A DNA stretch of 64,000 nucleotides, from NCBI GenBank assembly GCA_038063715.1, contig JBBTUO010000007.1, forward strand, positions 1,540 to 65,539, given 5' to 3'. The stretch's first letter is position 1. The number at the start of each line of letters is the position of its first letter. The translations under genes and the position numbers were made by a program. This stretch comes from Patescibacteria group bacterium. Lineage in GTDB: Bacteria; Patescibacteriota; Minisyncoccia; Phycocordibacterales; SIBU01. Under the pieces are notes generated by a model. That model saw nothing but the letters and a program-made list of their open reading frames with translations. It was not told the origin of the DNA and did not search any database. Positions 35,011 to 64,000 of the stretch are shown piece after piece.

Positions 35011-35115
35011 TACCTGGTGCGATGCAAACTAATTAGCTTTTAATCCTTTTAATTTTGTCGAAAGAAAAATGCCAGTTCCGGATTGCTCCGCGCTGGCATT
35101 TGAGAAGGAAATAGG

Positions 35116-41069: not shown

Positions 41070-41155
41070 CTTTATTAATTTCTAAATTATAATTTCTAAT
41101 TTCTAAACCGGAGTCAAATTCGAATTTTATTAGACATTAGTAATTAGAAATTTAT
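41070..41155. repeat. AT-rich intergenic element, copy near-identical to 39640-39725
   Basis: ATTAATTTCTAAATTATAATTTCTAATTTCTAAA...TATTAGACATTAGTAATTAGAAATTTAT. Confidence 0.7.
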
Positions 41156-47216: not shown

Positions 47217-48179
47217 CTAGATTGCCGAACTTCCGGTACCTGATCCAATCTGACCCTCAGACGGAAGACTGATACAGCTGTAACCAATGTACATCTGACA
47301 CTGAGAACCTGAGGTGTACTCGCCCACAGCATTTAATGTAAAAGGAAGATTGTATCCCATATACATTTGCGTACCGGTGTAATAAGTAAGAAGCACTACG
47401 TATGTAGGAGGAAGTGGGGTGAGCGTAACCAACCAGTTACCACTACAAGTGCAATAAAAGGGAAACAAGATTCTGCCGCCAAAAGGAGTGCCTCCCAAAG
47501 CGTAAACCTTTTTACCCGCAAAAAACTCAGATAGTGTGTTGAGAAATTTTAAAAAACTTTGACCATCGTTAAACGAACTTTGGAGTCCGTACACAGGAAC
47601 ACCAGCTTTCTGCACAGCATCTACAAACTTTTCTTCAGGTTTTTGCACAAGGATATCTTTTTCAGCACCGTCTTTTATGGTCAACAACTGATCCCTGCTA
47701 TATCCCTGTTTTACACCCACCTTATCGAGTGCCTGCAAAAAACTTGCCTGATCAAACTGTACCTTGTTAGTCACAGAAGCGGGTGCAACCAGTGGTGCCT
47801 TAGGGGTCTGAACAGTCGTCACAGGCAACACTGCAGTCGAAGCCGATGACTGTAGAGAGTTCATTTTTACCCTGGTCAACATCCCGACAAAACCAGTTCC
47901 CTGATAAAGGCCGGCAGGAATAAGCACCTCTGTTCTATATTTTTCCTGAAATCTTATAACCGCAAGCTTTGTTAATACTCCAAATCGCTCAGTCTCTTGT
48001 CCGGTTGAACCTGGGCCACTCATTGCAACAGCAGTATAAGAATCTTGATTCAAAAAGCGCTGCAACTCTAGTACCGCCTGACCGGTACTGCCAATCGACA
48101 AATTTTCGGTAAATGTATAGGCAAAAACAACAGAAGGGAAGAGTGTTGAAAGCAGAAAAAATCCTGAGAATAGTTTCAT
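47217..48179 (-). CDS. Secreted protein with peptidoglycan-binding-like domain
   Basis: Signal peptide, then GSTGQAVLELQRFLN...GPGSTGQETERFGVLTKLAVIRFQEKY (PG_binding_1-like). Cys-containing C-terminal region. Confidence 0.45.
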   Translation of the reverse strand: MKLFSGFFLLSTLFPSVVFAYTFTENLSIGSTGQAVLELQRFLNQDSYTAVAMSGPGSTGQETERFGVLTKLAVIRFQEKYRTEVLIPAGLYQGTGFVGMLTRVKMNSLQSSASTAVLPVTTVQTPKAPLVAPASVTNKVQFDQASFLQALDKVGVKQGYSRDQLLTIKDGAEKDILVQKPEEKFVDAVQKAGVPVYGLQSSFNDGQSFLKFLNTLSEFFAGKKVYALGGTPFGGRILFPFYCTCSGNWLVTLTPLPPTYVVLLTYYTGTQMYMGYNLPFTLNAVGEYTSGSQCQMYIGYSCISLPSEGQIGSGTGSSAI

Positions 48180-48315
48180 AGTAAAATAAGTATACTACAA
48201 ATGCCTACTGTTATGCATTTTGAGGTAACTGTGGAGATGTTTTGGTATTTTATCTGATATAATTAAAGGCAAAGAGCGAGCGCTTCTTGTTGCTTCTCTG
48301 TATTTGTGTAATCAA

Positions 48316-49284
48316 ATGACAACTCCCAGTAAAAAAATACTTCTCACTGCATCAGTCGCGATTGTTGTGATTGCAGGCCTGGTATTTTTTACCCAATTTC
48401 AATCAGAAATCACCTACACAGCTCCCGTAGCGAGCACCGCCACATCAACAGGCACTCTTGAAATAGACACCGATCAAGACGGCCTTAGAGATTGGGAAGA
48501 AGGATTGTGGAAAACAGACCCGATCAACCCTGACACTGACAGTGACGGTACAGAAGACAGCGCAGAAATTAAGCTAAACCGCGATCCGCTTTTGGCAGGC
48601 CCAAACGACAAACTCGACACTGACACGGTAGACAACAAAATCAACCCGGAAACAGAGGCCGACCTCACCGATACGGACAAGTTCTCACGCGAGCTCTTTG
48701 TGAAAATTATCGCCGCCGGTCAAGCCGAAAACCCGCCCACCGAAACGGACTTCCAAAACTTCTTAAATTCCACTATTCAAAACCAGGTCGTCACGCAAAA
48801 GGCGAGATCCTACACCTCAGCAGATTTTTCTGTGGACAACGAAGAAACGCCAGCAAAAATAAAGGCCTATGGCAATGCACTGGCTACAATTCTAAAAACT
48901 CCCCCTACTAAAAAATTTGAATACGAAATCAACATCGTAGAGAGAGCGCAAGAAAAAAAAGACCCAGAAATCTTGAAGCAACTAGAGCCGAACATAAGCG
49001 CTTACGCTAATCTTGAGAATACTCTGCTTAAAATGACAGTGCCTAAAAGCGCTCTGCCAGTTCATATAGCACTTACCAACGGCGCAGCTGGTATGGCATG
49101 GAGCATTACCGGGCTTTCCTATATTTTAACCGATCCAATAAAAGCATTACCCGGTGTTGCAGGGTATGGAGAAAATTTTCAGGCTTTTATCAAGAGTCTA
49201 GGTGGCTTCAATAAATATTTTATAAGCTCAAAAGTAATTTTTCAACAAAACGATGCTGGCTACCACTTCTTTGATGCGATATAA
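48316..49284 (+). CDS. Hypothetical membrane-anchored protein with Asp-rich calcium-binding-like repeats
   Basis: N-terminal TM (ILLTASVAIVVIAGLVFF). DTDQDGLRDWEE...NPDTDSDGTEDSAE...DTDTVDNKINPETEADLTDTD, thrombospondin-type-3-like. The ORF track starts at a TTG at 48304. Confidence 0.4.
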   Translation: MTTPSKKILLTASVAIVVIAGLVFFTQFQSEITYTAPVASTATSTGTLEIDTDQDGLRDWEEGLWKTDPINPDTDSDGTEDSAEIKLNRDPLLAGPNDKLDTDTVDNKINPETEADLTDTDKFSRELFVKIIAAGQAENPPTETDFQNFLNSTIQNQVVTQKARSYTSADFSVDNEETPAKIKAYGNALATILKTPPTKKFEYEINIVERAQEKKDPEILKQLEPNISAYANLENTLLKMTVPKSALPVHIALTNGAAGMAWSITGLSYILTDPIKALPGVAGYGENFQAFIKSLGGFNKYFISSKVIFQQNDAGYHFFDAI

Positions 49285-49304
49285 TTAAGCAAAGGCAATC
49301 GACA

Positions 49305-51764
49305 ATGGTCGAGGTGCCACAATTTCTCATGAACAAAAGTTGGAAACATCATATTCTAGTAACAATAATATCCTTACTCGTTGCTCTGCCGACTTTAGTT
49401 GGTTTTAGTGAAAAAGCAAACGCTGAAGCCACAGCGTGTTTGGCAGGAATCATCAGTGGTATTACCTCAGCAATGAGTGGTGGAATTGGCAATGTCGCTA
49501 CTGTCCCCGTAGGCGACTCCGCGACTCTAAACTCGACCGCGCAGACCTCTGGACAAACAACAGGATCTACAATCCAACGCTGTGTAGTCGAACCGCTCGT
49601 TACCGTGATGGCTCGCTCACTTCTTGAAAACTTTACCGCCCAGACAGTGCGTTGGATAAACTCAGGATTTCAGGGGAGCCCTATGTATGTCACCAACATT
49701 CAAGGGTTCTTTGGCGATGTCGCCGACCAGGCAGCTGGACAATTCATTGCTGGTCTTGGACCAATTGGCCAAATGCTCTGTAGTCCATTCGATCTTCAAC
49801 TTCGCCTATCACTCGGCCTACAATATTCCTCAAATTACCGGCAGCTTATTGGCTGTCGACTCTCTGACATCCAAAACAACGTCCAAAGAGCCTTCACCGG
49901 AGGTCAATTCGGAAGAAACGGCTGGGACAACTGGATTAATCTTACCGCTACACCACAAAACAACATTTACGGTTCTTACTTGAAAGCCACAGAGGCAATC
50001 GACCTGAAAATCGGTAATACTCAGATTAGCCTTGGCAAACAACTTGATTTCGGCAAAGGCTTTCTATCATCAAAAGACGCAAACGGAAACATCACAACAC
50101 CAGGATCAATCATCGAGGGCCAGCTCGACAAGACCTTGTACCAACCTCTACAAAACATCGGCCTGGCAAAGGATATTGATGCAATCTTGAATGCGTTGGT
50201 AGGACAAATGATAAACCAAGTTATGGGTGGTATTGGTGGTCTCATGGGGGCAAGCAACTCGTCCGCTGGTGGGGGACAGTCTGCTGTAGACCGGGGTATC
50301 AATCAGACAGTGACCGCTCTAATGCAACAAAACAGCCAATCACAAATTTTACCGTCTGGTTTTATTATGAATACAGGTACGGGAACACTAAATCCTACAG
50401 GAAGCGCTACTGGACCGACCCCAATATCATTCTGCTATCAGTTCAGTCAAAACATTTACGGCACCAACGCCGACCCACAAAGACCTGGTGATGTCTACGT
50501 AAAAGTAAACGGAGTGACAAATCCAAGCGCCCTTCAAACAATTACCTCTAAAATTGTCAACGCAACAACTGTTCCTTGGACCGTTTCTGACTACAACAGT
50601 ATTTATACATACTGCCAAAACGTGAACCGAACATCTGTATTAAGTGCCGGAACTAACGCCTTTACGGGCCAGGTAGAAGATATCATTGGTAACCAAGCGT
50701 CTTCCACCCCAGCAAATCCAACACTGACAAATCAAAACTTAACCAGACTCCCCGGAGTGACAGCTAAACAATCCAGTACATACCTAGGCTGGAATTATTA
50801 CCCAGAAGCCAGAATCGCAATTGATGGTCAGACCTACGGTAGCTCAAACTATGGCTTAGCTATGACGCAAGCTCGAGCGGATCAATGGTGGCAGGTGGAT
50901 TTGGGTAACACTAAACAAATCGGTACGATTAAAATATATCGCGAGCCAAACGGTAATTACTTGAGCTATCCGTTCCATGTATTTGTGTTAAACAGCGACC
51001 CAGATGATGTGCCGCTCGACGCGTTTTTGGTTGGCAGCGCCCAAAATACAGTTGTATCTCACACTTTTGTTCCCGACCCGACTGCCATGACTGCTTTCGG
51101 CACAAACGGTAGCAACTTCATGACCCTAAACTTGGGTAATGTTTCTGGGAGATTTGTTCGCGTTACACAATCTGTTGGAAGCTATGTCGGTCTGGCGGAA
51201 GTAGAGATATTTTCGCCGACAACTGGAACTAGTGCGGGAGGCCCAGCTCAACCACCTATATACTTTTCGTCTCCAGAAATTGACCGGACAGCAACACCTT
51301 TGAGCCGAATGGGTACATTTGAAAACTCGGTATTCCTAGTAGCAAACGAGGATCTGTCCGACCTAAGGGCTAAAATGACAATTGCCAAAATTGGTTATAG
51401 CTATAACCAAGGGGTGCCGGGATTCCCTACAATCTTTAGAACCTTAAATGTCACCTCAACTCGAGTGCAGACCTCAGAACAAATTGAAAACACAGACATA
51501 GTAGTACTAAATACCATCGGGTGCGGTGGGTGGCAGCAAACCTGTAACGGGAAAATAAACCCAATATTTGGACTCAACAACCTGCTCAACCCTGTCACTT
51601 ATGACCAAGCCTTATCAGTAGTTGCGGGACAACAAATTCAAATGGTGCAAAGCGGTATTATTTCTAGCCTTGCCACTTCAGGCACTTACAGAATTACACT
51701 AGACATTACGACTGCTGGCGGGAGTCTTCTGGCCAGTCAAAAAATAACGTTCAGTATTCAATAA
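49305..51764 (+). CDS. Large secreted protein with F5/8 type C (discoidin) domain
   Basis: 819 aa. Signal/anchor. C-terminal-half segment WWQVDLGNTKQIGTIKIYREPNGNYLSYPFHVFVLN...RFVRVTQSVGSYVGLAEVEIF matches the discoidin-domain pattern. Confidence 0.5.
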   Translation: MVEVPQFLMNKSWKHHILVTIISLLVALPTLVGFSEKANAEATACLAGIISGITSAMSGGIGNVATVPVGDSATLNSTAQTSGQTTGSTIQRCVVEPLVTVMARSLLENFTAQTVRWINSGFQGSPMYVTNIQGFFGDVADQAAGQFIAGLGPIGQMLCSPFDLQLRLSLGLQYSSNYRQLIGCRLSDIQNNVQRAFTGGQFGRNGWDNWINLTATPQNNIYGSYLKATEAIDLKIGNTQISLGKQLDFGKGFLSSKDANGNITTPGSIIEGQLDKTLYQPLQNIGLAKDIDAILNALVGQMINQVMGGIGGLMGASNSSAGGGQSAVDRGINQTVTALMQQNSQSQILPSGFIMNTGTGTLNPTGSATGPTPISFCYQFSQNIYGTNADPQRPGDVYVKVNGVTNPSALQTITSKIVNATTVPWTVSDYNSIYTYCQNVNRTSVLSAGTNAFTGQVEDIIGNQASSTPANPTLTNQNLTRLPGVTAKQSSTYLGWNYYPEARIAIDGQTYGSSNYGLAMTQARADQWWQVDLGNTKQIGTIKIYREPNGNYLSYPFHVFVLNSDPDDVPLDAFLVGSAQNTVVSHTFVPDPTAMTAFGTNGSNFMTLNLGNVSGRFVRVTQSVGSYVGLAEVEIFSPTTGTSAGGPAQPPIYFSSPEIDRTATPLSRMGTFENSVFLVANEDLSDLRAKMTIAKIGYSYNQGVPGFPTIFRTLNVTSTRVQTSEQIENTDIVVLNTIGCGGWQQTCNGKINPIFGLNNLLNPVTYDQALSVVAGQQIQMVQSGIISSLATSGTYRITLDITTAGGSLLASQKITFSIQ

Positions 51765-51767
51765 CAA

Positions 51768-54700
51768 ATGAGCAATAAGCAGTTTATTAAGAAAATATTC
51801 CTAGGAATTCTGTTTAGTATTATTTTACTCGCGCCCCTAGGTAATGGGGCGGCGGTTTTTGCCCAAACAACTGGTTTTAACCCTCTCGAAGGAGGGGTAG
51901 CCGACCCTGTAGATCCTGATTTTCAAGATGGGGGGCAGTACGACCCTAACACCGTCCCATCAACACCTAACCAGGGTGGTCAAGCTGGTGCAAGCGATAA
52001 CAAGACCAACCCAAAACCTGGCCCACAAACGCAGGGTTGTATAAGAACCACTCTGGGAGTGATGAGCGGAATCAATATTAATGCCTGTGTCGGACAGCTT
52101 CTAAACCTCTGGATGTGGCTCGTCGCGTGGTCACTATTTCTCGCGGGCCTAATTCTAGACACGTCGCTCTATTTCACCATCCACCTAAAAGAACTCATGG
52201 CTAGTGTGCCGACTGTCAGAATAGGCTGGACAATTTTTCGAGATCTCTCAAACATCTTCTTCATCTTTATTCTCCTGTGGGTGTCAATTGGTACAATCTT
52301 GGGTATCGTTGGTGGCAAAACCAAAGAAATTATCGTCAATTTAATTGTGGTTGCGCTTTTAATAAACTTTAGCCTTTTCATAACCCAGGCTGTAGTAGAC
52401 GCTTCAAACATTGTGGCTATTCACTTTTACAATCTAATCGTACCGGCACCCAATGGATCAAATTTAAATCCATTCGGTAGTGGTAGCTTCTCTGGAGCAT
52501 TCATGCAGGGTCTAAAAATCCAGACAATATATGACCCATCAGGGACCGGAGCTGGGGCAGTGGGCACAGGTGTTGGTGGGGCCTTTGATGTATTGCTTAA
52601 AGGTGCGAGTGGTACGGCACTAGACATACTGAAAATTATCTTTATGGGTGTTTTCGGCAGTATTCTCATGCTTACCGCGGCTTATGTTTTCGTTGTGGCT
52701 GCAGTTCTGTTTATCATCCGTATTGTCGTGCTTATGTTCTTAATGATGCTCTCACCTTTAGCGTTTTTATGCTTCGTTTTACCAGCAACCGAAAAATATG
52801 CTGAGGAGTGGAAAGAAAAACTTATTAGCCAATCGTTATTTGCGCCAATCTATCTCGCACTATCCTTTGTTGTGGTGAAAACAATACAAACCCCTGAATT
52901 TCAGGCGATTCTAGCATTAAACACGGGTGTTGGACCTGGTGGGATCTTCACATCAGCCGGAGGAATACTTATAAACTTCCTTCTTTTAATTGGTTTAATG
53001 GTTGGTTGTATTTTTGTCGCCAAGAAAATGGAGGCTGTCGGAGAGGAACTTGCGCTGGGTGCGGGGTCAAAGTTTATTACAAGCGCCTTGCAAGGCAAGC
53101 ATCTTTCGGCACCCTTCAGTGGAGCAGCTTACGGCGGTAAATGGCTCGGTGAGAAACTTCAAAAGAATAGTTTTACAAAAAGTTTTGGTGAAAAACTATA
53201 TACCGGATCAATGGCTCTAGATAAAACGACAGAGTCAATGAGAAAAAAGATTGACATGAATGAGCTTGATAAGAAATTTGGGGAAAGTGGCTTTGGAAAT
53301 ACATCTCTCGGTAGTTTACTTCGCGAACAAACAACAGGCAGAATAACCCATGCCAAATTCGGCGGAGAGGAATCTCTGCATGAAAAACATGAAGAAGATA
53401 TAAAACGACAAGAAAGGCAGGATGAGATTGGAAAAAAGAACTATGCGCTGCAGCTTTCCGAAGAAGCAAAAAAGGCCCTGAAAGACTTTGAGGAATCGAA
53501 AATAGTAAAAAAGCCTTCGATTGCTGATTTTACTGATGCCAATAACATGTTTGACCCGGTAGGTTATGATAGGGCAGCACAAAAGATGGAGGACGAGCGA
53601 AAAATAAAAGAGGCGGAGTTGAAAAAGATATCCGATGAAGCCGAGGCGAGTTATGCTACAGCAACTGGCTTTATATCACCACAGGGTTTTGCAGAAATGG
53701 GTGAACATGACATACATTCCTTGGCAAAACATGCCAGCCTTGGCCAAATTGACGCGGTAATGAAATCAACAGAGTGGACACTTGATGAGAAGAGAGAGAT
53801 GCTTGGGCCTAAGTTCGATTCGTATGTTTCTGAATTTAAGGAACTCGATAAAAAAACCGATGCGTACGAAGCAGATCAAAAAGAATTGGAACGACTTATC
53901 GTTGCAGGAGAGATCAGAATTGATGGTGAAGACGGAAGTGTCATTGAGGACGCAACTCAAAAAATTGTTGGCGGCAATATAGAGGTAAACGGCGTTATTA
54001 AATGCAAAAAACCGGTTGCGCCAGGTCTGCCTTCCCACCTAAAGGGTTGGGCCAGAAACGACATGACAGTTCATGGATATGAACTTTTGTACCAATTAGT
54101 GCCCGGGGCTTTAAAAAGTCGCTCACTGATTGGAGCGACTCGACACGGCTTTACACACAAGGAATTAAGATTCAATAACAACTTAAGTTACGCCGACAGA
54201 AACGAACTTTCACTTATAAAAGATGTGAAAATTAGAAGGTTTACTGACAAAAAAGATCCTAATTTCTTCGCGTCAAATACTGATGACGAACGACAGATAG
54301 CTTTCAATGAAGCGAAGGCTGAGGCTCAAACGCTTTTGGCAGCTATACCAGGAGCTACAGATGAGCAAAAATCTGCAATTTGGGATAAAGAGTGGGCAAA
54401 GGCAAGATCAAAACACCTTCAAAGAGATGTTATTATTGAAAAGGGTATGAAGGAGTGGGCGTCGGGACGCAGTGCAGATGAGATTGCGGCGGCAAGAGGT
54501 ATATTCAGAAACTCGGCGGCACTACACACCCTTGTTGACAAAGGAATCGCAGGAAAGTGGGAGGGTAAAGACTCAGAAGATATCGTCTTTTTGCTACGAG
54601 ATCTTGTTAGGTCATACAAAGCAGAAAAGGAGGGTAAGGGTGTAATGACATTGGAAAATCGTAAGGCCCTTGAATCAATCCTATATGATCCTCGCAACAA

Positions 54701-54869: not shown

Positions 54870-54911
54870 TTGCTTTGGGAATGTAGAAACGAAAATAGTA
54901 AAGCATAGAAA

Positions 54912-56654
54912 ATGCCCATGTCATACACAGATCAAAAAGAAAATCTTAATAAAACCGTCTGGCGATTAGTACCGAACGCACCGTCGGTTTTATCTGATGA
55001 CCCCGATTTCCTGATAGAAGAGGTCAGTGAGGTTTTCAACCTAACTATGGGAGAAATCGGTGAACTTTGCGAACTTGTCAGACAAGTTATCACAAAGGAA
55101 TTGCCGGTTGAAAAATTTGGTGAGGGCTTGAAAGAAAAACTGGACGAAGAGAACCGATCAAGAGTAGGGGAGATCGTGTGGGAAGTGAATGACAAAGTAT
55201 TCGTAAAGCTTTTGCCAGTACTCGGGATGAAGGCGTTACCAATCGTAGCAAGACCAGCCGCACCAGTAGCACCTGTTACCGAGCCAGCAACAACCCCAGA
55301 AGTAACAAAAACCCGTCCATCTGATGGGCCGACCTCTTCATCTCAAACCGCACCAGTTTTCCAAACAACTAAAAGCTCACAACTAAAAACCGCTCTGCCT
55401 GTCCCTCCCCGCACCGTCCCGCTATCAACTAACAACTATCAACTAAAGACTGTCTCTAACCCTTACCGCCTACCGACAGCTCCTCCCACCTTTGCCGCCC
55501 CAGTTTCTCAGCTCTCCTCCCCGCTCCCGACCCCTAAACCATCAACTGTCGACTATCAACCACCAACTAATACTGTCACCCCGACCCCAATCATCCCGAA
55601 GCCTCGCCCTCAATTTATCGCTCCAAAACTATCCTCCCCAGTCTCTACCCGGGCCAATTTTTCTCCCTCCAAGCCTGCTTCTCCAGTTCCCATCAGAATT
55701 CAAACCCCTTCAAACTCAACTCCAAACCCTCGACCATCTCTCGTTGAGCCTTCCCACAAAAGTCTTTCAGAAAATCCTACTGACTCGTTCCTAAAAATGC
55801 TCTCAGGAAAACTGAGCGAGAAAGAATTACAAACTCGTTTTGATAAATTACCCTATGCACTGAAAACTGCCCTCCGCAGTGTGGATTCGGCGCGAGTAGT
55901 AGTAGACATTGGAAGAAAGTATGCTTTGCACGTAGACAAACTCGGCGAGCTTGGAGAAGAGACCGGTCTTGTGATACTTGGAATCACTCATCCAGGAGAA
56001 TTTCTTGGTCGTCTAAGCAGAAAACTAGGTGTTAGTGAAGACAAAACCCGACTTATCGCACAGGAAATCAATACTGAAATCCTCCTAAAAATCCGTGACG
56101 CTCTAAAACAGGTCAACGGTGAACCGATACTCGCAAGACAGCCATCAACTGAATCATCAACAAAAAGAGAAATGCAACAACAAAATCCAAGCACAAACAA
56201 AGGTTCGACCTTTGTAAAAAAGGAAAGGGAGGAGATTCCAAGTCGCGAATCTCTCCTGAAAGACATTGAGGACCCCGCCTTACCGCAGGAATATGAGAGT
56301 ATGCCAAATCGTGACTCACTATTAAGGGATATTGAAAACCCAACACCGACAAACTACACGCCGATGCGCTCTCAAAGCATGTCCTACGCCCCTGAGCCCC
56401 CTCGTGATATTCCACCGCCCGTTCCACAAATAGCCGAGGAAGCTCCTGAACCAGTGGCCCAAGCCCAAACAGTGGTAACTCCCGTACAGGTTACGCCAAT
56501 TAAGACCCGCCCAACCGAGGTGGCGCCTGAGCCAACTAGCACTACTCCTGACACCCCTAAAAACATTGTGGATCAGAAACTTTCCAATACGGTTGTGTCG
56601 CCGAAATCGCAAAGTAGTTATTCGAGTGATCCGTATCGTGAACCGCTTAGTTAA
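54912..56654 (+). CDS. Proline-rich hypothetical protein
   Basis: 580 aa. Structured N-terminal ~110 aa, then a long P/T/S/A-rich low-complexity region, then a C-terminal ~150 aa with periodic acidic motifs. Confidence 0.4.
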   Translation: MPMSYTDQKENLNKTVWRLVPNAPSVLSDDPDFLIEEVSEVFNLTMGEIGELCELVRQVITKELPVEKFGEGLKEKLDEENRSRVGEIVWEVNDKVFVKLLPVLGMKALPIVARPAAPVAPVTEPATTPEVTKTRPSDGPTSSSQTAPVFQTTKSSQLKTALPVPPRTVPLSTNNYQLKTVSNPYRLPTAPPTFAAPVSQLSSPLPTPKPSTVDYQPPTNTVTPTPIIPKPRPQFIAPKLSSPVSTRANFSPSKPASPVPIRIQTPSNSTPNPRPSLVEPSHKSLSENPTDSFLKMLSGKLSEKELQTRFDKLPYALKTALRSVDSARVVVDIGRKYALHVDKLGELGEETGLVILGITHPGEFLGRLSRKLGVSEDKTRLIAQEINTEILLKIRDALKQVNGEPILARQPSTESSTKREMQQQNPSTNKGSTFVKKEREEIPSRESLLKDIEDPALPQEYESMPNRDSLLRDIENPTPTNYTPMRSQSMSYAPEPPRDIPPPVPQIAEEAPEPVAQAQTVVTPVQVTPIKTRPTEVAPEPTSTTPDTPKNIVDQKLSNTVVSPKSQSSYSSDPYREPLS

Positions 56655-56775
56655 ATTATACGAAAATACGAATGAAGACGAATATACGAACATATACGAA
56701 AGGGGAAGGGGTGCGAGATTCATTTTTCGTGACCATTTCGTATATTCGTACAATTCGTATTTTCGTATATTAATT
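56655..56775. promoter_or_regulatory. Large inverted repeat of TACGAA / TTCGTA repeats around a G-rich centre (AGGGGAAGGGGTGCG)
   Basis: Left arm ATTATACGAAAATACGAATGAAGACGAATATACGAACATATACGAA. Right arm TTTTTCGTGACCATTTCGTATATTCGTACAATTCGTATTTTCGTATATTAAT. Related elements lie upstream of 58094 and 61119. Confidence 0.6.
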
Positions 56776-56776
56776 T

Positions 56777-57208
56777 ATGAGATTTCAAGTCCCCCAATTC
56801 ATCGAGGTTGAAGATAAAATCTTCGGCCCGCTCACATTAAAACAGTTCATCTACCTAGCCGGTGGGGGAGGGTTGTCATTTGTGATATATACCTATCTAA
56901 ACTTTTTTATTGCCATATTTTTAATTGTTCCTATAGTAATTCTTGCTGTTGCCCTCGCGTTTTACAAAGTAAATAACCGCGGATTTATAAACGTACTGGA
57001 GTCTGGTTTTCAATATATTCTTTCCAACAAACTCTACATCTGGAAAAAAATGCCCAAAAAACCTGACGCCAAAACTCAAGAGCAAGCCTCTGCAACACCC
57101 GTGTATGTTCCAAAACTTTCTGATAGTAAACTCAAGGATTTAACGTGGAGTTTGGATATCAATGACAGTACTAACCCAGGAGCGTCGGAAACCATGCATA
57201 GCCGCTAG
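56777..57208 (+). CDS. Small two-TM membrane protein (possible VirB3/TcpE-like T4SS component)
   Basis: 143 aa. Two adjacent hydrophobic helices (LAGGGGLSFVIYTYLNFFIAIFLIVPIVILAVALAFY) and a hydrophilic tail. The assignment rests on architecture only. Confidence 0.35.
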   Translation: MRFQVPQFIEVEDKIFGPLTLKQFIYLAGGGGLSFVIYTYLNFFIAIFLIVPIVILAVALAFYKVNNRGFINVLESGFQYILSNKLYIWKKMPKKPDAKTQEQASATPVYVPKLSDSKLKDLTWSLDINDSTNPGASETMHSR

Positions 57209-57341
57209 ACACAAAGGTGCATGCGTCAATTTCTAAGTCCTAATATCTAATTTCTAATCAAAGATCTGGGTTAGATATTAGAAATTATAATTTAGAAATT
57301 TTGCACAATTCACCAGTAGATATATCTGATATAATAAATCA

Positions 57342-57995
57342 ATGGCAACCAGTGCAAACAGCAAGGCCACGCAGGAATTCGTCCCCATCAAAGAAGTCCG
57401 GGATGGGATTGTCGTTCTGAAGGACGGCTCTTTTCGTGCCGTGCTCATGACCTCATCCTTAAACTTCGCGCTGAAATCGGAAGAGAACCAAAATGCAATT
57501 ATTTCACAATTTCAAAATTTTCTAAACTCTCTTGATTTCTCTATACAACTTTTCATTCAATCGAGAAGGCTCGATATCAGACCCTACATCGGACTACTAG
57601 AAGGGCGTTACAAAGAGCAAGCTACCGACCTAATGAAAATTCAAACTCGGGAATACATAGAATTCATAAAGAATTTTACTGAAAACTCGAGCATAATGAC
57701 GAAAACCTTTTTTGTCGTCGTGCCGTATGCATCTGCACCAATCCAAGCGCAGGGGGGCGTGGTGGAAATGGCAGGTAAGTTTATGACGCGGAAAACCGCA
57801 GAAGAGAAGGTTCAGAAAAAACAAGATACATTTGAAGAAAACCGTAGCCAGCTCTTACAGAGAATGTCTGTTGTTGAACAAGGTTTAATGCGGTGCGGTA
57901 TACGAGGGGTTCAGCTCGGCACCGAGGAAGTGGTAGAATTGTTTTATAAGATTTTCAACCCGGGCGATACCGAGAAGCCGATACAGATAAACTAG
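57342..57995 (+). CDS. Hypothetical protein, resembles N-terminal region of VirB4/TraC-type proteins
   Basis: EFVPIKEVRDGIVVLKDGSFRAVLMTSSLNFALKSEENQNAIISQFQNFLNSLDFSIQLFIQSRRLD parallels the N-terminus of the adjacent VirB4-like protein. Confidence 0.4.
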   Translation: MATSANSKATQEFVPIKEVRDGIVVLKDGSFRAVLMTSSLNFALKSEENQNAIISQFQNFLNSLDFSIQLFIQSRRLDIRPYIGLLEGRYKEQATDLMKIQTREYIEFIKNFTENSSIMTKTFFVVVPYASAPIQAQGGVVEMAGKFMTRKTAEEKVQKKQDTFEENRSQLLQRMSVVEQGLMRCGIRGVQLGTEEVVELFYKIFNPGDTEKPIQIN

Positions 57996-58093
57996 TATCA
58001 ATGCTAATATACTAATGATACGAATGGGGAAGTTGCATTTGATTGGTATAATTAGTATGAATTCGTATATTGGTATCGCTACATAAAATAATC

Positions 58094-59914
58094 ATGAGCT
58101 TTTTAAGCAATTTATTCGGTAAAAAGGAAAAGACTCCTGATATAGCATCAATTCTTCCGCAGGAAATCTACGAGGCTGGTGTTTTGGAATTGAAAGATGT
58201 TATTGCTCCTTCGGCACTACAAATTAGTCCGAGATCCATCAACTTGGGGGATAAAATTGTCCGTACTTTTTTTGTCATTTCCTATCCTCGTTTTCTTTCG
58301 GCAGGTTGGTTTTCGCCGATTATCAATCTGGACAAGGTGTTCGACATCTCGATTTTCGTGCACCCGATTGATACAGTCACAGTGCTTCGTCAATTCCAGA
58401 AAAAAGTGGCCGAGGTGCAAAGCCAAATCGGCCAACGCCAGAAAAAGGGTCTGGTCCGAGATCCTATGCTCGACACCGCATACCAAGACCTTGAGCGTCT
58501 TCGTGACAACCTGATGCAGGCTCAAGAAAAGCTTTTTGATGTTGGTTTATATATTTCAATTTATGCAGACAACCAGGAAGAGCTCGACAAAATCGAGTCT
58601 GAAATAAAATCGCTTTTGGAATCAAAATTAATTTATCTAAAACCGGCCTTATTCCAGCAAGAACAAGGGTTCAAAAGTGTCATGCCGACCGCAACTGATC
58701 AGCTTTTGATCCACTCAAAACTCAACTCCGCGCCGCTTTCGTCCCTTTTCCCATTTACTTCTTTCGACCTCACATCAGATAAAGGTATTTTGTATGGGAT
58801 CAACAGACACAACTCGTCCTTGGTACTTTTCGACAGATTTAGTCTAGAAAACTACAACTCCATCACATTTGCTAAGTCTGGTTCAGGAAAAAGTTACAAT
58901 ACCAAACTCGAAATATTACGAACACTGATGTTCGATACTGAGGTTATCGTTATTGATCCTGAGAGGGAATATGAATACATGGCCGAGGCGACTGGCGGAA
59001 AATATTTTACCATTTCTCTCAACTCAAGCCACCACATCAACCCTTTTGATTTGCCGATGCCAACCGAAACTGAATCTTCGGCAGATGTCTTGCGATCAAA
59101 CATCATCAACCTGGTCGGACTGTTTAGAATTATGCTCGGAGGCCTTAACCCCGAAGAAGACGCCTTGATTGACCGTGCAATTAGTGAAACCTACGCACTA
59201 AAAGACATCACTCCTGATTCGGACTTTAGAAATGTGGAACCACCACTTCTTTCAGATTTTGAATTGGTGCTCGCCGGCATGGAAGGGGCAGATTCCCTTG
59301 TTCAGCGTTTGAGTAAATACACTCGAGGCACATGGGCTGGATTTATCAACAAACCTTCAAATATCGACATCGACAGTAAATTCATCGTATTTTCACTCCG
59401 TGACATGGAGGACGAGCTTAAGCCTGTCGCCATGTATATCGTAACTCACTATATCTGGAACGCGATCAGGAAAAATTTGAAAAAACGCCTTTTGGTCATT
59501 GATGAGGCGTGGTGGATGATGAAATCAGAAGACACAGCATCCTTCTTGCTCGGACTTGCAAAAAGAGGGCGAAAATATTTCTTGGGACTTTCTACAATTA
59601 CTCAGGACGTCGACGACTTCCTAAAATCTCCCTACGGTCTACCGATAATCACCAACTCATCTATCCAAATGCTCCTAAAGCAGTCGCCATCCTCGATTGA
59701 TCGGGTGCAAAAAGTGTTTAATCTTACCGACGAAGAAAAATATCTACTGCTTGAATGTGACGTGGGCGAAGGAATATTCTTTGTCGGACTAAAACACGTA
59801 GCCCTAAAGGTTATCGCTTCGTACACAGAGGACCAAATTATTACATCTGATCCATCTCAACTCTTAGCCATTAAACAGGCCAAGAAAGAACTGGAAGCGG
59901 CTCAGGGCGCATAA
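58094..59914 (+). CDS. VirB4/TrbE/TraC-type conjugal-transfer (type IV secretion) ATPase
   Basis: Walker A KSGSGKSYN...EVIVIDPEREY. Walker B-like LLVIDEAWWMM. Overall VirB4 layout. The ORF track starts at a TTG at 58070; the ATG at 58094 is more likely. Confidence 0.8.
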   Translation: MSFLSNLFGKKEKTPDIASILPQEIYEAGVLELKDVIAPSALQISPRSINLGDKIVRTFFVISYPRFLSAGWFSPIINLDKVFDISIFVHPIDTVTVLRQFQKKVAEVQSQIGQRQKKGLVRDPMLDTAYQDLERLRDNLMQAQEKLFDVGLYISIYADNQEELDKIESEIKSLLESKLIYLKPALFQQEQGFKSVMPTATDQLLIHSKLNSAPLSSLFPFTSFDLTSDKGILYGINRHNSSLVLFDRFSLENYNSITFAKSGSGKSYNTKLEILRTLMFDTEVIVIDPEREYEYMAEATGGKYFTISLNSSHHINPFDLPMPTETESSADVLRSNIINLVGLFRIMLGGLNPEEDALIDRAISETYALKDITPDSDFRNVEPPLLSDFELVLAGMEGADSLVQRLSKYTRGTWAGFINKPSNIDIDSKFIVFSLRDMEDELKPVAMYIVTHYIWNAIRKNLKKRLLVIDEAWWMMKSEDTASFLLGLAKRGRKYFLGLSTITQDVDDFLKSPYGLPIITNSSIQMLLKQSPSSIDRVQKVFNLTDEEKYLLLECDVGEGIFFVGLKHVALKVIASYTEDQIITSDPSQLLAIKQAKKELEAAQGA

Positions 59915-60003
59915 CACACAACATGGAGCATGTAACACAGGAAACCGAATTTTTGCTTTCTTTAGTGGTACGTGTTGTGTGCTCCATGTTCCATGTCTAA
60001 CCT

Positions 60004-60996
60004 ATGGCGGAAGAAAAAGAAAAAAAAGTTGGCGGAGAAAATATCAGCAACACCGAGTGGGGGATGGTAATTTTTGTTCTCCTCATCATCGATGGGATAC
60101 AAATCGGTCTTAATTTTGCTTTTTTGTCGGGGGTGATTATAAACCGCTTCCTTGATATGGGTATAGGTCTCGCGTGGAGCACCTATTTAAAATTACGTGG
60201 AGTAAAACTAGATGCAAAAAAAATCGTGAGTATAGGAGCGACCTTCGGACTTGAGATGTTACCCGGAATAGATATGCTCCCGCTGTGGACCCTAGACGGA
60301 ATCTTAATATTTGCTTTAGTAAAAGCGGAAAAGGAGCTCAAAAAGGTGGCAAAGGTGGCTATAGCTGTGGCGGCAGTGGCACTTGCACCTGAGACCGGTG
60401 GAGCTTCGGTTGCAGCTGCTGGAGCCGCCGAAGGCGCTGTTGCAGCCGGAGCTGAAGGAGCTGCTGCTGGAGCAGAGGGCGTTGCGGCAGAAGGGGCTGG
60501 TGGTGAGGTGGGTGGAGAAGGCGGCCCGTCTGACGAGTATGCCGACTCTATGGGTCAAGAAAGTGCTGACCCAGAAGCCGGTGACGGTTCTGAAAACCTA
60601 GGAGAAGAAGGGGGGCAGGGTGATGAGAATAATGACATATCGGATGAAGAGGCGGACGATCTTGGAGAAGATTCTGATAATACATTAGAGGAAAGGGAAA
60701 ACGAAACTCCCGCGGACAAAGCAAAAAGGGAAGAAGGGGAAGGAAAAAATAAAAGGCGTAATAGGCAGAAAAAATCACAGCAAGGGCAAGGAGGATCATT
60801 GTTCGGTGGTGGACAAAGAGAAGGAGAGGGTGGGGGTACAGGGGCTGACCCTCTAAATTTGCGCGACAATTCCGGTAGAAATGCAAACAATAGGGATAAC
60901 CTAAAAACCAGAAGTAACCTATTAGACCTCTCTCTGTCCTACGGCGCCAGAAAGAAACAAAAGGACGACGCGGACGAACAAAGCTTTTCAGCGTAG
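60004..60996 (+). CDS. Hypothetical membrane protein with acidic Gly/Ala/Glu-rich low-complexity tail
   Basis: Two hydrophobic helices in the first 100 aa, then AAGAAEGAVAAGAEG repeats and a D/E-rich tail. Confidence 0.4.
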   Translation: MAEEKEKKVGGENISNTEWGMVIFVLLIIDGIQIGLNFAFLSGVIINRFLDMGIGLAWSTYLKLRGVKLDAKKIVSIGATFGLEMLPGIDMLPLWTLDGILIFALVKAEKELKKVAKVAIAVAAVALAPETGGASVAAAGAAEGAVAAGAEGAAAGAEGVAAEGAGGEVGGEGGPSDEYADSMGQESADPEAGDGSENLGEEGGQGDENNDISDEEADDLGEDSDNTLEERENETPADKAKREEGEGKNKRRNRQKKSQQGQGGSLFGGGQREGEGGGTGADPLNLRDNSGRNANNRDNLKTRSNLLDLSLSYGARKKQKDDADEQSFSA

Positions 60997-61118
60997 TTAC
61001 ACTAGTAGCGATGCCGATATACGAATGAATGCTAATTATACAAATGGAGAAGGGCGGGATTCGTATCATTAGAACAATTAGTATATTAGTATCGATACTT
61101 TGTGGTAAAATAATAACC

Positions 61119-62153
61119 ATGAATAGCCTCGTTACAACACTCCTAATGTCGCTGGTTTTTACACCACTAATCACAAGTGCTCAAAACTTCCAAAACCTTG
61201 GCGGGGGACAGACCAGCAGCAACATCACTGCCCAAGTCACACCAGAAAAACCGCTACCAAACCAATTTGTAACCGTCACTGTCGAAAATTACTCGACTGA
61301 CATAAATCGAGCAAACATATCTTGGTTCCTCAACGGCAAAATGGAAAAAGAAGGTGTTGGCGAAAAAAGCTTTCTTTTTAAGACTGGTGCGCCAGGTAGC
61401 GTATCGAACATTTTGATTGTAATCAAAACAACGGAAGGTGAGACCTTGCAACACGTGCTCAACATCAGACCAGGAGCGCTCGACCTTGTGTGGGAAGCGC
61501 AATCCTATACACCACCGTTCTACAAAGGGAAGGCTCTATATCCATATCAAGGCACAGTGAAAGTAGTAGCGCTACCAAACATAGTGAACGAAAACGGGGA
61601 GATTATAAATAGTAAAAATCTTGTATATACATGGAGTGTGAACGGTGGTACGGTAGCAAGCGTATCAGGATATGGAAAAAATTTTATATACTACAACGGT
61701 ACAATACCTATCAACTCCACCGCAATATCCGTAGAGGCGTCGTCTTTAGACAAAAAGTACAGCGCGGGTGGATCTATATCACTCGAACCACAAGCCCCCC
61801 TTGCCCTTTTCTACGAGGACAGTCCAATTTATGGTTTGTTGTATAATAAAGTCTTGGGAACAAGCGAGACCCTAAAAAATGAGGAGATTAAAATCGTGGC
61901 TATCCCATATTTTGTCGGGGTAAAAGAAAGAGAGGGGAGCGGATTACTCTACGAGTGGCGATTGAATAGTAATTTGGTAAATTCCGTTAAAGGTCTCAGC
62001 AGTTTAACCTTTAAACAAGAAAATGATGCCAAGGGCACCGCTTCGGTTTCACTCCAAGTTTCCAACCCCGCAAGAATGTTCCAGTTTGCAAACAATGATC
62101 TCTCGATTACATTTGGACAAATTTCAGGTATAAACCTCTTTCCAACACAATAA
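61119..62153 (+). CDS. Hypothetical secreted protein
   Basis: Signal peptide MNSLVTTLLMSLVFTPLITSAQ. Beta-rich composition. The ORF track begins at 61029, upstream, but the signal peptide favours 61119. The stop overlaps the next start (TAATG). Confidence 0.4.
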   Translation: MNSLVTTLLMSLVFTPLITSAQNFQNLGGGQTSSNITAQVTPEKPLPNQFVTVTVENYSTDINRANISWFLNGKMEKEGVGEKSFLFKTGAPGSVSNILIVIKTTEGETLQHVLNIRPGALDLVWEAQSYTPPFYKGKALYPYQGTVKVVALPNIVNENGEIINSKNLVYTWSVNGGTVASVSGYGKNFIYYNGTIPINSTAISVEASSLDKKYSAGGSISLEPQAPLALFYEDSPIYGLLYNKVLGTSETLKNEEIKIVAIPYFVGVKEREGSGLLYEWRLNSNLVNSVKGLSSLTFKQENDAKGTASVSLQVSNPARMFQFANNDLSITFGQISGINLFPTQ

Positions 62154-63061
62154 TGTTAAAAAAAAATAAAATCTATCTTAGTATTTTCACCCTAACTTCT
62201 TTTTTCGTATTGCTTTTAGTAACCTTGTCATTCCCAGTTCTTTCGGTCAATGCCCAGGGATATATACCCCTAGCGCCGATTCCGGGAACAACAAACGCTG
62301 GAGACACAGGTACACAGGTTTTAGCCACCTACCTCACCGGAATATTTAAAATAGGAATCGCGGTTGCCGGCGCTCTAGCCTTTCTTATGATTGTCCTAGG
62401 TGGATTCCAATACCTCTCTACCGATGCCCTGACAGGCAAAGAGGAGGGGAAAGAGAGAGTAACTCATGCTGTGGGTGGATTAATCTTAGCTCTAGTCTCT
62501 TTTATTATTTTAAACACAATTAATCCAAAGTTGGTGGCGCTAAATCTTGATTTTGGACCTGGTGCCAACCCAGCAACAGGTCTTTCCACACCAGCAAATC
62601 TTGTTTCCCCCAATACAGACCCCACGGAACTTGAAGCTTTGAGGGCCCAAGCTAGAGGAGTCATTTCAGCAAATGTAAACGGTCGTATTCAGGCCTTAGC
62701 GGACAAGGAAAGAACCGGCACCTTAACCCCCGAAGAGGAACAAGAAAAGGTGGAGCTTGAGATAATAAGAGAGGGCACCGTGACAATGAATAGAATTAAT
62801 ATAGAACAAACCAACATACTCACGGCATTAAATAGAAATGGTCTGCCTTCAACTAGAGCTAGAGAGGCTAGAGAGGCTGTAGAAATATTGAGAGGCGAGG
62901 TTAACAATCGTATAGCAGCAATGGCGGCAGATGGTGCGACCGTAGCACAAATGGCCACTGTCCGGCGGTACTTTGATCGAGCTGTACAGTTAATAGAAAG
63001 ATGTATCGGATTTAGACAGAATGGCCCAGATAGTCCAAATTTCAACTCAAGCTGCAGATAA
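62153..63061 (+). CDS. Pilin-like (VirB2/TrbC-like architecture) membrane protein with C-terminal coiled-coil extension
   Basis: Signal peptide, then two hydrophobic helices separated by a short loop (IFKIGIAVAGALAFLMIVLGGFQYL ... AVGGLILALVSFIILNTINP). Architecture-based only. Confidence 0.35.
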   Translation: MLKKNKIYLSIFTLTSFFVLLLVTLSFPVLSVNAQGYIPLAPIPGTTNAGDTGTQVLATYLTGIFKIGIAVAGALAFLMIVLGGFQYLSTDALTGKEEGKERVTHAVGGLILALVSFIILNTINPKLVALNLDFGPGANPATGLSTPANLVSPNTDPTELEALRAQARGVISANVNGRIQALADKERTGTLTPEEEQEKVELEIIREGTVTMNRINIEQTNILTALNRNGLPSTRAREAREAVEILRGEVNNRIAAMAADGATVAQMATVRRYFDRAVQLIERCIGFRQNGPDSPNFNSSCR

Positions 63062-63064
63062 TAT

Positions 63065-64000
63065 ATGTCCCAAAAAACCGCCACAATCATCATAATCATT
63101 TTTGTCCTAATGCTTGCCCTAGGGTTTTTGGCATTTTATTTTTATACAAATCAAGGACAAGGGGTCGGTATTGGAACCACGGATCCTCGTGGAAACATTT
63201 TTCCTGGAGGAGGAACGGGTGGTGGGGGCACAGAAGTTCCAGGTGGCAACACAACACCGGAAGGAGGAACGGGTGGTGGACAGGGGGGTACACCGCAAAT
63301 AGTTCCTGTACTAAAAGAGCTTTCGACTCGCCCGAGTGCTGGAGCAGTATCTATTGCCACATCAACATCCGTACTAGTACGCTTTATAGAAAGGGGGAGT
63401 GGTAATGTATACGAGGTAAGTCCGCAGGACAATTCAGAAAAGCGCCTCTCAAACACCACTATTCCAAAAATTGAGGAGGCTTTATGGGACAAAACCGGTA
63501 CACAGGTGATCGCTCGTTACACAGGAGATACTGGCGATTTAATAAAAACATATAGCGCCACACTCACAGAAAACTCAGCGACAGAAATCGAAGGTAAACT
63601 CCAAGGCTCTTTTATGACCGACAACATTGATGTTGTTGCAAAAAGTCCAGATCAAACAAAAATATTTTACTTACTACAAAATTCTGCCGGTACCACGGGA
63701 ATTGTTTCTGATTTCAATGGAGGCAAAAAAACTCAGGTATTTGACTCTCCCTTGCAGGAATGGCTTGTAGAATGGCCTACCGCAACACAGGTAGCCCTTA
63801 ACACAAAACCTTCGGCGGGGGCACCCGGATTTCTATTTCTACTAAATACCGCGACTGGGGCGCTCACCAGAGCAATTTCCTCAATCAACGGTCTTACAAC
63901 TCTCGTTAATCCTAGGGGAACCATGGCTTTGTACTCAGAAAGTATTTTTCCCAACCTGTCCTTCAAAATATATTCTTTCACCGACGGATCCACAAAAGAA
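63065..64000 (+). CDS. Hypothetical membrane-anchored protein (3' end lies outside the window)
   Basis: ATG at 63065. Frame open to the window end. N-terminal TM (TATIIIIIFVLMLALGFLAFYFY), then a Gly-rich linker. Absent from the ORF track because no stop lies inside the window. Confidence 0.4.
   Translation, partial: MSQKTATIIIIIFVLMLALGFLAFYFYTNQGQGVGIGTTDPRGNIFPGGGTGGGGTEVPGGNTTPEGGTGGGQGGTPQIVPVLKELSTRPSAGAVSIATSTSVLVRFIERGSGNVYEVSPQDNSEKRLSNTTIPKIEEALWDKTGTQVIARYTGDTGDLIKTYSATLTENSATEIEGKLQGSFMTDNIDVVAKSPDQTKIFYLLQNSAGTTGIVSDFNGGKKTQVFDSPLQEWLVEWPTATQVALNTKPSAGAPGFLFLLNTATGALTRAISSINGLTTLVNPRGTMALYSESIFPNLSFKIYSFTDGSTKE

Follow-up and report, generated by a model that had tools for sequence, protein, structure and literature searches.

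A chromosomal gene block beside dnaA in a member of the Patescibacteria, probably encoding a clade-specific type IV secretion system

Organization and chromosomal setting of the locus

We analyzed a stretch of 64,000 nucleotides (nt), hereafter the window, from a Patescibacteria group bacterium (GenBank assembly GCA_038063715.1, contig JBBTUO010000007.1, positions 1,540 to 65,539), and focus here on one block of same-strand genes at 48.3-64.0 kb, which the continuation of the contig carries to its end at about 64.3 kb and which probably encodes a type IV secretion system (T4SS). An earlier note on this DNA, made from its letters and open reading frames (ORFs), had described a T4SS-like or competence-like envelope machine. 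Every element that it listed is present, at or near the position assigned to it, and the T4SS-like half of the description holds, with five T4SS components recognizable in the block. The competence-like half is not supported, as no type IV pilus or Com parts lie there: among the block's proteins we found no PilB/PilT ATPase, PilC platform protein, prepilin peptidase or pilin with a class III signal peptide.

The block is flanked on one side by uvrD and ksgA (the latter at 46416-47189) and on the other, past position 64000, by jag, yidC, rnpA, rpmH, dnaA, dnaN and a class A penicillin-binding protein gene, in that order. A synteny comparison had been proposed in the earlier note, and for this we took one genome per GTDB species, obtaining 80 loci with 77-91% identity in VirB4, with which the window proteins were compared one by one using tblastn. 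In about 80 species-level relatives the same order recurs: uvrD, ksgA, a gene for a peptidoglycan-binding protein (optional), and then genes for a TSP3 protein, a modular surface protein, a VirB6-like protein, a proline-rich protein (optional), PrgI, TrsD, VirB4, a small membrane protein (optional), an immunoglobulin (Ig)-like protein, a pilin and a propeller-like protein. Downstream of the block yidC and dnaA are found in all 43 full-length loci and dnaN in 42 of them. As both the gene order and the yidC/dnaA flank recur across relatives, the block is a vertically inherited chromosomal locus fixed beside the replication origin, and not a mobile element. The guanine-plus-cytosine (GC) content across it is flat (0.42-0.46), with no anomaly relative to the flanks. 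A scan for sigma-70 promoters found 29 against 28.5 expected and one for intrinsic terminators 19 against 19.8 expected, both at the level of chance, so that operon boundaries cannot be drawn from them.

The closest homologues of the VirB4 protein carry the names Parcubacteria, Paceibacterota or Candidatus Taylorbacteria, and by similarity, as distinct from phylogeny, every named one among its homologues belongs to Parcubacteria, Paceibacterota, Taylorbacteria or Patescibacteria. The genome is thus a member of Paceibacteria (Parcubacteria), probably related to Taylorbacteria. Many public records of metagenome-assembled genomes with the Paceibacteria-type locus (L005, L008, L010, L012 and others in our numbering) are titled 'uncultured Candidatus Saccharibacteria bacterium'; these titles look generic or mistaken, because their VirB4 and synteny match Parcubacteria/Taylorbacteria records.

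The conserved core of the secretion system

The motor of the system is a 606-aa VirB4-family ATPase (58094-59914, plus strand), which the earlier note had classed as VirB4/TrbE-type, citing two motifs. Both are present, namely the Walker A sequence GSGKS at residues 263-267 (nt 58880-58894) and LLVIDEAWWMM at residues 466-476 (nt 59489-59521), and the protein passes the curated cutoff of the NCBIfam family NF045971 (VirB4-like, CD1110 family; 4e-109, 365.9 bits against a cutoff of 325), in addition to matching Pfam P-loop_TraG (4e-27). Its alignment to the CD1110 profile covers only positions 185-732 of 752. In BLASTP comparisons its alignment with pCF10 PrgJ spans residues 215-772 of the latter (26% identity, alignment length 568 aa, E 9e-40), that with the 'short' VirB4 of pGO1, TrsE, which is paired with TrsD, runs from end to end (E 2e-30), and the match to R388 TrwK is weak (E 2e-7), so that the ATPase is of the monoderm (CD1110/MPF-FATA) type. 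More than 8000 homologues were scored in the database searched, the top 120 of which are all at least 82% identical. The 77-91% amino acid identity over the 80 species-level genomes, against 25-40% for neighbouring surface proteins, makes this VirB4 unusually conserved.

Directly upstream of virB4, the ORF at 57342-57995 (plus strand, 217 aa), whose identity the earlier note had overlooked, encodes a TrsD-like protein, which is homologous to the extreme N-terminus of VirB4 but stands on its own. Its NCBIfam matches are to VirB4_plasma (positions 100-233 of 894, 2.5e-11), CD1110 (positions 2-130 of 752, 8e-9) and TrsD (7.6e-6), and its precomputed Pfam families are PF26593 (TraC-like) and PF27097 (VirB4_TrbE_N). 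The gene was found in 79 of the 80 loci at 63% identity. VirB4 function is thereby split in the manner of pGO1 between TrsD and TrsE homologues: what is missing from the 606-aa ATPase is provided by the TrsD-like protein. Since the 217-aa ORF matches TrsD and the N-termini of VirB4 proteins, while the ATPase aligns end-to-end with TrsE, we assign the core to the TrsC-TrsD-TrsE type of pGO1. Further upstream, a small membrane protein of 143 aa (56777-57208, plus strand) matches the PrgI family PF12666 above the gathering score (3.2e-10) and corresponds to PrgI/VirB3; it too was found in 79 of the 80 loci, with a median identity of 58%.

The largest product of the block is a polytopic membrane protein of 1033 aa (51768-54869, plus strand). 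The earlier note had taken it for a VirB6/TrbL-like protein with a charged tail of about 600 aa; the tail measures about 560 aa, with 17.7% D+E and 16.1% K+R. No Pfam or NCBIfam family matches the protein directly. In a collection of 5.8 billion proteins, its homologues repeatedly carry PF04610 (TrbL/VirB6) and PF19590. An AlphaFold2 model of residues 1-500 has a predicted local distance difference test score (pLDDT) above 90 through the membrane core, and a Foldseek search of PDB with it returned TrwI/VirB6 chains of the R388 T4SS as the six best matches (probability 0.99-1.0). The homologues' domains and the modelled fold together support a VirB6 assignment, and because of its 560-aa charged tail this putative channel protein would be an 'extended VirB6' in the sense of the 2025 FEMS review (PMC12857230). 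It is retained in all relatives examined.

The fifth component is a VirB2-like pilin of 302 aa (62153-63061, plus strand), in which a T4SS pilin domain at residues ~55-122 is followed by a C-terminal extension of about 170 aa. The earlier description of this protein as pilin-like gains most from its orthologues: the match to PF18895 (T4SS_pilin) is marginal in this copy (4.3e-5), while 44 of 45 orthologues match the family, the best at 2.2e-11, and three match TrbC/VirB2. NCBIfam additionally gives a match to the Mbov_0395 pilin-like family (3e-4). Orthologues range from 106 to 628 aa in length. A TAATG stop/start overlap at 62151-62155, already pointed out in the earlier note and confirmed in the sequence, couples the pilin translationally to the gene upstream of it.

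Envelope and surface proteins accompanying the core

Six further proteins of the block are envelope or accessory proteins outside the core: the TSP3, modular lectin-bearing, proline-rich, small membrane, Ig-like and propeller-like proteins. The block opens with the gene for a bitopic membrane protein of 326 aa (48304-49284, plus strand) with one N-terminal transmembrane (TM) segment, Asp-rich repeats of the calcium-binding TSP3 type and, towards the C-terminus, a conserved domain of some 200 aa. The TSP3_bac match is weak in this copy (E 0.053) and was obtained for 16 of 40 orthologues (best 2.8e-10), in line with the earlier reading of Asp-rich calcium-binding-like repeats; the gene is syntenic in 44 loci, and a profile search of PDB with the protein gave no match.

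The next gene (49305-51764, plus strand) encodes a modular surface protein of 819 aa, comprising a signal or anchor segment, a conserved N-domain of about 320 aa containing cysteines, a discoidin (F5/8 type C) domain and a beta-rich C-terminal region. The discoidin domain seen in the earlier note is borne out by Pfam (F5_F8_type_C 2e-6, NedA-like 4e-8). Across the family alignment A2, W117, G124, P126, C159, C184, P266 and G267 are invariant; for the two cysteines this holds across the 45 sequences aligned from the loci, and very nearly in a wider alignment. The C-terminal modules differ among orthologues: a discoidin domain occurs in six of 45, and others have Ig-like, FN3, PKD or InlB-B modules. 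The gene ends 3 nt before the start of the VirB6-like gene and occupies the place that virB5 takes relative to virB6 in systems of the T class of mating-pair formation (MPF-T). The N-domain belongs to no Pfam family and its profile found nothing in a PDB sequence search; its AlphaFold2 model is poor (pLDDT 52.8), and a Foldseek search with it returned noise.

Between the VirB6-like and PrgI genes lies that for a soluble Pro/Ser/Thr-rich protein of 580 aa (54912-56654, plus strand), recognized as proline-rich in the earlier note (13.4% Pro) and devoid of TM segments. Its conserved features are a module of about 90 aa and, at the C-terminus, an invariant DPYREP motif, in which D573, Y575 and E577 do not vary across the orthologue alignment (A9). 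Profile searches gave no PDB match and there is no Pfam match. Orthologues are mostly 184-390 aa long; the protein is expanded here, and the ~90-aa module seems to be present twice.

Three more genes lie downstream of virB4 in addition to that of the pilin. The first (60004-60996, plus strand) encodes a small polytopic membrane protein, delineated by a TM scan and an alignment (A7), whose conserved N-domain of about 110 aa has D30, E84, P87, P93 and W95 invariant; the acidic Gly/Ala-rich tail that follows, some 200 aa long, is confined to the window and the sister genome L005, the closest relative. The second (61044-62153, plus strand) encodes an anchored or secreted protein of 369 aa, syntenic in 76 of the 80 loci, whose orthologues give weak matches to the Ig-type families BiPBP_C, Ig_3 and Big_2 and a PDB profile match to an Ig-fold antigen receptor (E 0.02); it probably consists of tandem Ig-like domains. 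The last gene of the block starts at 63065 (plus strand) and passes the window edge by 312 nt to the equivalent of position 64312, a run-off that the earlier note had overlooked. Its product of 415 aa, the full sequence of which was taken from L001, has an N-terminal TM anchor and a Gly-rich linker followed by what is probably a beta-propeller, as suggested by a weak match to TolB (E 0.025) and single matches to PD40, DPPIV_N and DUF5050. It is syntenic in 62 of the 80 loci.

The peptidoglycan-binding protein and the LysM-M23 peptidase that had been reported nearby are both recovered by Pfam. The former is a secreted protein of 320 aa (47217-48179, minus strand; PG_binding_1 3.9e-5) and a peripheral member of the locus. 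Its gene is transcribed divergently and was detected by tblastn in 18 of the 80 related loci, in most cases on the minus strand and immediately before the TSP3 gene. The latter (42904-43896, minus strand; Peptidase_M23 8e-30, LysM 3e-25) is a cell-wall hydrolase whose gene is not part of the block but lies some 10 genes upstream of virB4. It is a candidate VirB1 analogue, and a survey of Patescibacteria genomes (Quinonero-Coronel et al. 2025, PMC12102498) reports that in Paceibacteria VirB1-like matches with LysM/M23 domains associate with virB4.

For each protein of the block, hidden Markov models and hhalign profiles were made from some 35 orthologues; compared with single T4SS proteins of pCF10, pGO1 and R388, they gave nothing significant. 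For some families the expected partners are among the top matches, at noise level (PrgI with PrgI/TrsC, TrsD with TrsD, the VirB6-like protein with TrwI in second place and the pilin with TrsB in second place), and no accessory protein could be equated in this comparison with PrgD/E/F/G/K/L, TrsA/F/G/H/J or VirB5/8.

Between the window and its relatives, median identities in the tblastn comparison are 81% for VirB4, 63% for TrsD and 58% for PrgI, against 27-40% for the surface and accessory proteins. We infer a constrained motor and channel combined with a diversifying, host-facing surface. A strongly conserved core with a diverging, module-swapping surface is the pattern expected of a machine for contact with a host.

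Identity as a Patescibacteria-clade secretion system

The survey cited above found VirB4 in 2417 of 3035 Patescibacteria genomes, mostly in a clade nested within the monoderm MPF-FATA systems, with TrsD, PrgI/VirB3, VirB6 and VirB2-like pilins encoded near virB4, relaxases almost never and type IV coupling proteins (T4CPs) rarely nearby (PMC12102498). The same study gives the TrsC-TrsD-TrsE-type set as the commonest set of T4SS components in Patescibacteria, and places the Paceibacteria locus near dnaA, dnaN, rnpA, ksgA and rpmH. All five widely conserved components of the Patescibacteria T4SS (VirB4, TrsD, PrgI/VirB3, VirB6 and VirB2-like) were detected in the block. The earlier note had allowed for a cluster with no T4SS family matches other than the ATPase; PrgI, TrsD and T4SS_pilin do match.

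That note had also seen neither a relaxase nor VirD4. We scanned all non-overlapping window ORFs of at least ~190 aa and several shorter ones, together with the precomputed Pfam families of the 9 kb downstream. No relaxase domain was found in the scanned window ORFs or in the 9 kb beyond, and no T4CP domain (VirD4, TcpA or FtsK-like) within the 73 kb examined; beyond position 64000, where the earlier note proposed looking for either, are jag, yidC, rnpA, rpmH, dnaA and dnaN instead. The adhesin-like accessory proteins and the non-conjugative role in a small-genome lineage that it had proposed are supported.

Based on these observations we propose, with a probability of roughly 0.85, that the block is the chromosomal, vertically inherited Patescibacteria-clade T4SS as it occurs in Paceibacteria (Parcubacteria), descended from monoderm MPF-FATA conjugation machinery like that of pGO1 and pCF10. 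Several points weigh against this proposal or parts of it. The VirB6 call combines transitive Pfam matches with a moderate fold match (Foldseek E 3e-3, TM-score ~0.45-0.5) and has no direct significant sequence match; the pilin match, at 24 bits, is below the Pfam cutoff of 26.6; and neither a VirB8-like nor a VirB1-like component was recognized among the proteins of the block. T4CP homologues occur in most Patescibacteria genomes far from virB4 (PMC12102498), so that a coupling protein could be encoded elsewhere. The data on essentiality taken up below come from Southlakia, of the class Saccharimonadia and not Paceibacteria, and the preference for import over export that we express further on is purely our inference.

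The locus is a clean and complete Paceibacteria example, with housekeeping genes on both sides. Patescibacteria represent a large share of bacterial diversity, live attached to hosts and cannot make their own nucleotides, amino acids and lipids, and no T4SS before theirs had been shown to be essential to the bacterium carrying it. The block shows which extra envelope proteins accompany the core machine in Paceibacteria and offers candidates for determinants of host range.

Palindromic repeats in the gaps of the block

Three gaps between genes around the core are widened here: 122 nt upstream of prgI, 133 nt between prgI and trsD, and 98 nt between trsD and virB4, the latter two measuring 0-25 nt in most relatives. 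At least two of the three are filled by strong hairpins. The first of these, recognized by folding, is a near-perfect palindromic intergenic repeat of about 115 nt without strand assignment (56655-56776), built from inverted copies of ATACGAA/TTCGTAT units, with a minimum free energy of -46.6 kcal/mol (z = -9.15). It belongs to a family defined by TTCGTATNNTCGTAT, in which ATTCGTA units are spaced about 9 nt apart and which occurs 8 times in the window against 0.05 expected, always in intergenic sequence; copies at 37484-37516, 44372-44386, 56658-56768 and 58062-58076 immediately precede the starts of pnp, uvrD, prgI and virB4. TTCGTATNNTCGTAT is common only to the window and L005, and near-identical copies of about 75 nt are dispersed in that genome (8147-9976, 16929, 18628 and 21645). 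The second hairpin, between prgI and trsD (z = -4.5), belongs to the palindromic family AATTTCTAA/TTAGAAATT, with 15 occurrences against about 1 expected and intergenic copies after the trigger factor gene (4336-4417), after pnp (39641-39662), before comM (41077-41144) and between prgI and trsD (57228-57292).

Both families look like repetitive extragenic palindromes or miniature inverted-repeat transposable elements inserted into the operon, and the repeat at 56655-56776 is a lineage-specific insertion. We rejected the hairpin upstream of prgI as an origin of transfer (oriT) or a regulatory site specific to the T4SS and prefer a dispersed repeat, because ATTCGTA-type units also precede pnp and uvrD and occur at scattered sites in L005. 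The only strong palindromes are those of dispersed intergenic families found also upstream of pnp, uvrD and comM, and to define a nic site would require a relaxase. A less favoured reading is that TTCGTATNNTCGTAT serves as a common operator that ties PNPase to the T4SS core.

Other features of the window

The housekeeping genes of the window encode an H+-pyrophosphatase, trigger factor, RNase Y, PurD, the CCA-adding enzyme, PNPase, ComM/YifB, a XerC/D-type recombinase, UvrD/PcrA and KsgA, and an Rfam scan of the window returned four tRNAs only. The region ~25900-35500 may be a variable island; it has a GC content of 0.47-0.51 against ~0.43 and many ORFs with no family match, including a Cys-rich one of 417 aa and overlapping ones on both strands. 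Also encoded there are a tyrosine recombinase (33257-34174), an Exo_endo_phos nuclease and a PaaX-like regulator, and a short product (ORF 30979-31296) whose N-terminus is hydrophobic and which by eye resembles a pilin. The window also encodes three TrmB-family regulators (5123-5878, 13625-14362 and 24827-25642) and two with PaaX_M domains (6679-7566 and 32436-33002); for a reduced genome, five such regulators within 64 kb represent a high transcription factor density.

Functional considerations

We suggest that VirB4, the TrsD-like protein, VirB3 and VirB6 would form a translocon of the cytoplasmic membrane that assembles a VirB2-like pilus or tube through a monoderm envelope. The fast-evolving surface proteins, with their TSP3, lectin, Ig-like and propeller modules, may dock the machine to the host cell, and the nearby cell-wall hydrolases (the LysM-M23 protein and the peptidoglycan-binding protein) could stand in for VirB1. 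Such a machine would serve an epibiotic lifestyle and not conjugation. Wang et al. 2023 (PMC10633639) found by transposon sequencing that the T4SS cluster of Southlakia, from which the coupling protein and relaxase are missing, is essential for epibiotic growth. The FEMS review (PMC12857230) treats these systems as a recognised T4SS subgroup and notes that in Southlakia comEC is dispensable and the T4SS is not.

As to the direction of transport, our tentative preference is for the uptake of macromolecules from the host. The reasons are that the cluster, in common with the importers ComB and Ced and the exporter Ptl, is without a coupling protein, and that these organisms cannot synthesize nucleotides. 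A 2026 preprint describes a cultivated member of the phylum that takes up host RNA and has tubular structures that 'may be T4SS pili'. A more specific and rather speculative version is that the six non-core proteins are an extracellular docking module specific to Paceibacteria, which replaces the outer core complex, VirB5 and VirB8 and whose swappable heads set the host range, while the machine acts as an inward feeding tube for host RNA or nucleotides upstream of PNPase.

Possible, if on the unlikely side, is a system that subverts the host by exporting proteins into it through the VirB6 channel or the pilus, the substrates being either secreted or delivered by Sec, or cytoplasmic effectors brought by a distantly encoded coupling protein. 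For Southlakia, Wang et al. raise the possibility that the system 'may instead export proteins' (PMC10633639), the Ptl and Brucella VirB systems export without a T4CP, and the block is rich in proteins bearing signal peptides. However, no candidate effector or secretion signal was identified, the T4CP homologue of Southlakia is non-essential while its T4SS is essential, and the secreted proteins of the block keep their synteny like structural parts, unlike variable cargo.

We regard as doubtful a purely adhesive pilus or surface structure that transports no substrate. It would account for the predominance, outside the core, of a pilin with a large extension, lectin- and Ig-like surface proteins and a TSP3 protein. 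Yet Patescibacteria already adhere by type IV pili (PMC12206443, PMC10633639), and a VirB6 kept in all relatives examined, together with a VirB4 about 80% identical among them, amounts to more conservation than would seem necessary for an adhesin scaffold.

DNA uptake by a competence T4SS, of the ComB type of Helicobacter pylori or the Ced type of archaea, appears improbable. Like the block, ComB and Ced lack a coupling protein; the ATPase partly matches CedB (5e-9), comM/yifB lies 5 kb upstream, and import of DNA or other macromolecules has been proposed for the Patescibacteria systems (PMC12102498). However, the CedB match scores 35 bits against a cutoff of 700 and spans about 70 residues around the P-loop, and the Pfam and NCBIfam scans found no CedA, CedA1, CedA2 or ComB-specific components. 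Transformation of Southlakia, moreover, needs type IV pili and ComEC, and its comEC deletion is viable whereas the T4SS is essential (PMC10633639; PMC12857230).

Least of all do we credit an ordinary conjugative element, be it an integrative and conjugative element or an integrated plasmid, with its relaxase, coupling protein and oriT outside the window: although VirB4, PrgI, TrsD and VirB6 have homologues among the conjugation proteins of pGO1, pCF10 and CTn2, a tyrosine recombinase is encoded at 33257-34174 and long palindromes lie within the operon, we reject such an origin on synteny and flanking genes, as housekeeping genes from jag to dnaN lie beyond the window, position and order are the same in about 80 genomes with dnaA downstream in 43 of 43, the 13 kb from the recombinase to the block are housekeeping (PNPase, ComM, UvrD, KsgA), the recombinase fits the general phage-integrase (tyrosine recombinase) family with no tie to the block, the GC content of the block equals that of its flanks, the palindromes are dispersed and also found upstream of pnp and uvrD, and relaxases occur in only 103 of 3035 genomes (PMC12102498).

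Relationship to known systems

Among more distant systems, ComB of H. pylori and Ced of Sulfolobales, both importers, and the exporter Ptl of Bordetella resemble the block in being non-conjugative and having a VirB4-family motor without a coupling protein. However, ComB and Ptl are diderm systems with VirB7-10, and the block shows no specific sequence relation to them or to Ced. With the VirB systems of R388 and Agrobacterium (MPF-T) it shares the predicted TrwI/VirB6 fold of the TM core, a VirB2-type pilin and a large surface protein at the virB5 position. In contrast to these, it lacks VirB7, VirB9, VirB10, VirB11 and VirD4, the similarity in VirB4 is weak (E 2e-7), and the protein upstream of VirB6 could not be equated with VirB5.

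The Prg/Pcf system of pCF10 (PrgH-PrgI-PrgJ-PrgK-PrgL) has VirB6-like, VirB3-like and VirB4 proteins in the same relative order, and its PrgJ belongs to the CD1110 family, the best NCBIfam match of the ATPase of the block. PrgJ carries the N-terminal ~210 residues, which are encoded separately in the block, and pCF10 differs further in having the PrgK hydrolase, PrgL (VirB8-like), PcfC (T4CP), a relaxase and the PrgB adhesin, and in having no VirB2-like pilin. Systems of the pGO1/pSK41/pIP501 group share with the block the order VirB3-like, TrsD and 'short' VirB4 and are likewise monoderm, without VirB7, VirB9 and VirB10. For the coupling protein TrsK, relaxase, oriT, CHAP hydrolase TrsG, topoisomerase and single-strand-binding protein of pGO1 no counterpart was recognized in the block, and pGO1 is a plasmid whereas the block is a fixed chromosomal locus.

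The likeness is greatest to the Patescibacteria-clade systems themselves. The cluster of Southlakia epibionticum (SEML1_0006-0019) resembles the block in its component set and in having no relaxase or T4CP nearby; the local order is also alike, with a large T4SS protein (0011, beside the TrbL/VirB6-like 0013), PrgI (0010), a hypothetical protein (0009) and VirB4 (0008) (PMC10633639, supplementary table), and Southlakia likewise has PF18895 pilins. The block differs in having one pilin gene with a 170-aa extension in place of an array of 6 pilins, and in lacking an NTF2/VirB8-like gene and a peptidase or lysozyme gene directly downstream of virB4. Its proximity to ksgA, rnpA, rpmH, dnaA and dnaN is that of the Paceibacteria loci of PMC12102498. 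The system has thus already been described, and the locus adds no new kind. Its Paceibacteria-specific accessory genes (TSP3, lectin, Ig-like, propeller-like and proline-rich) carry no annotation in those studies, and the palindromic insertions are particular to this lineage. What is added here is the pGO1-type split of VirB4, the 819-aa family with its variable C-terminal modules, and the two palindromic repeat families in the gaps of the operon.

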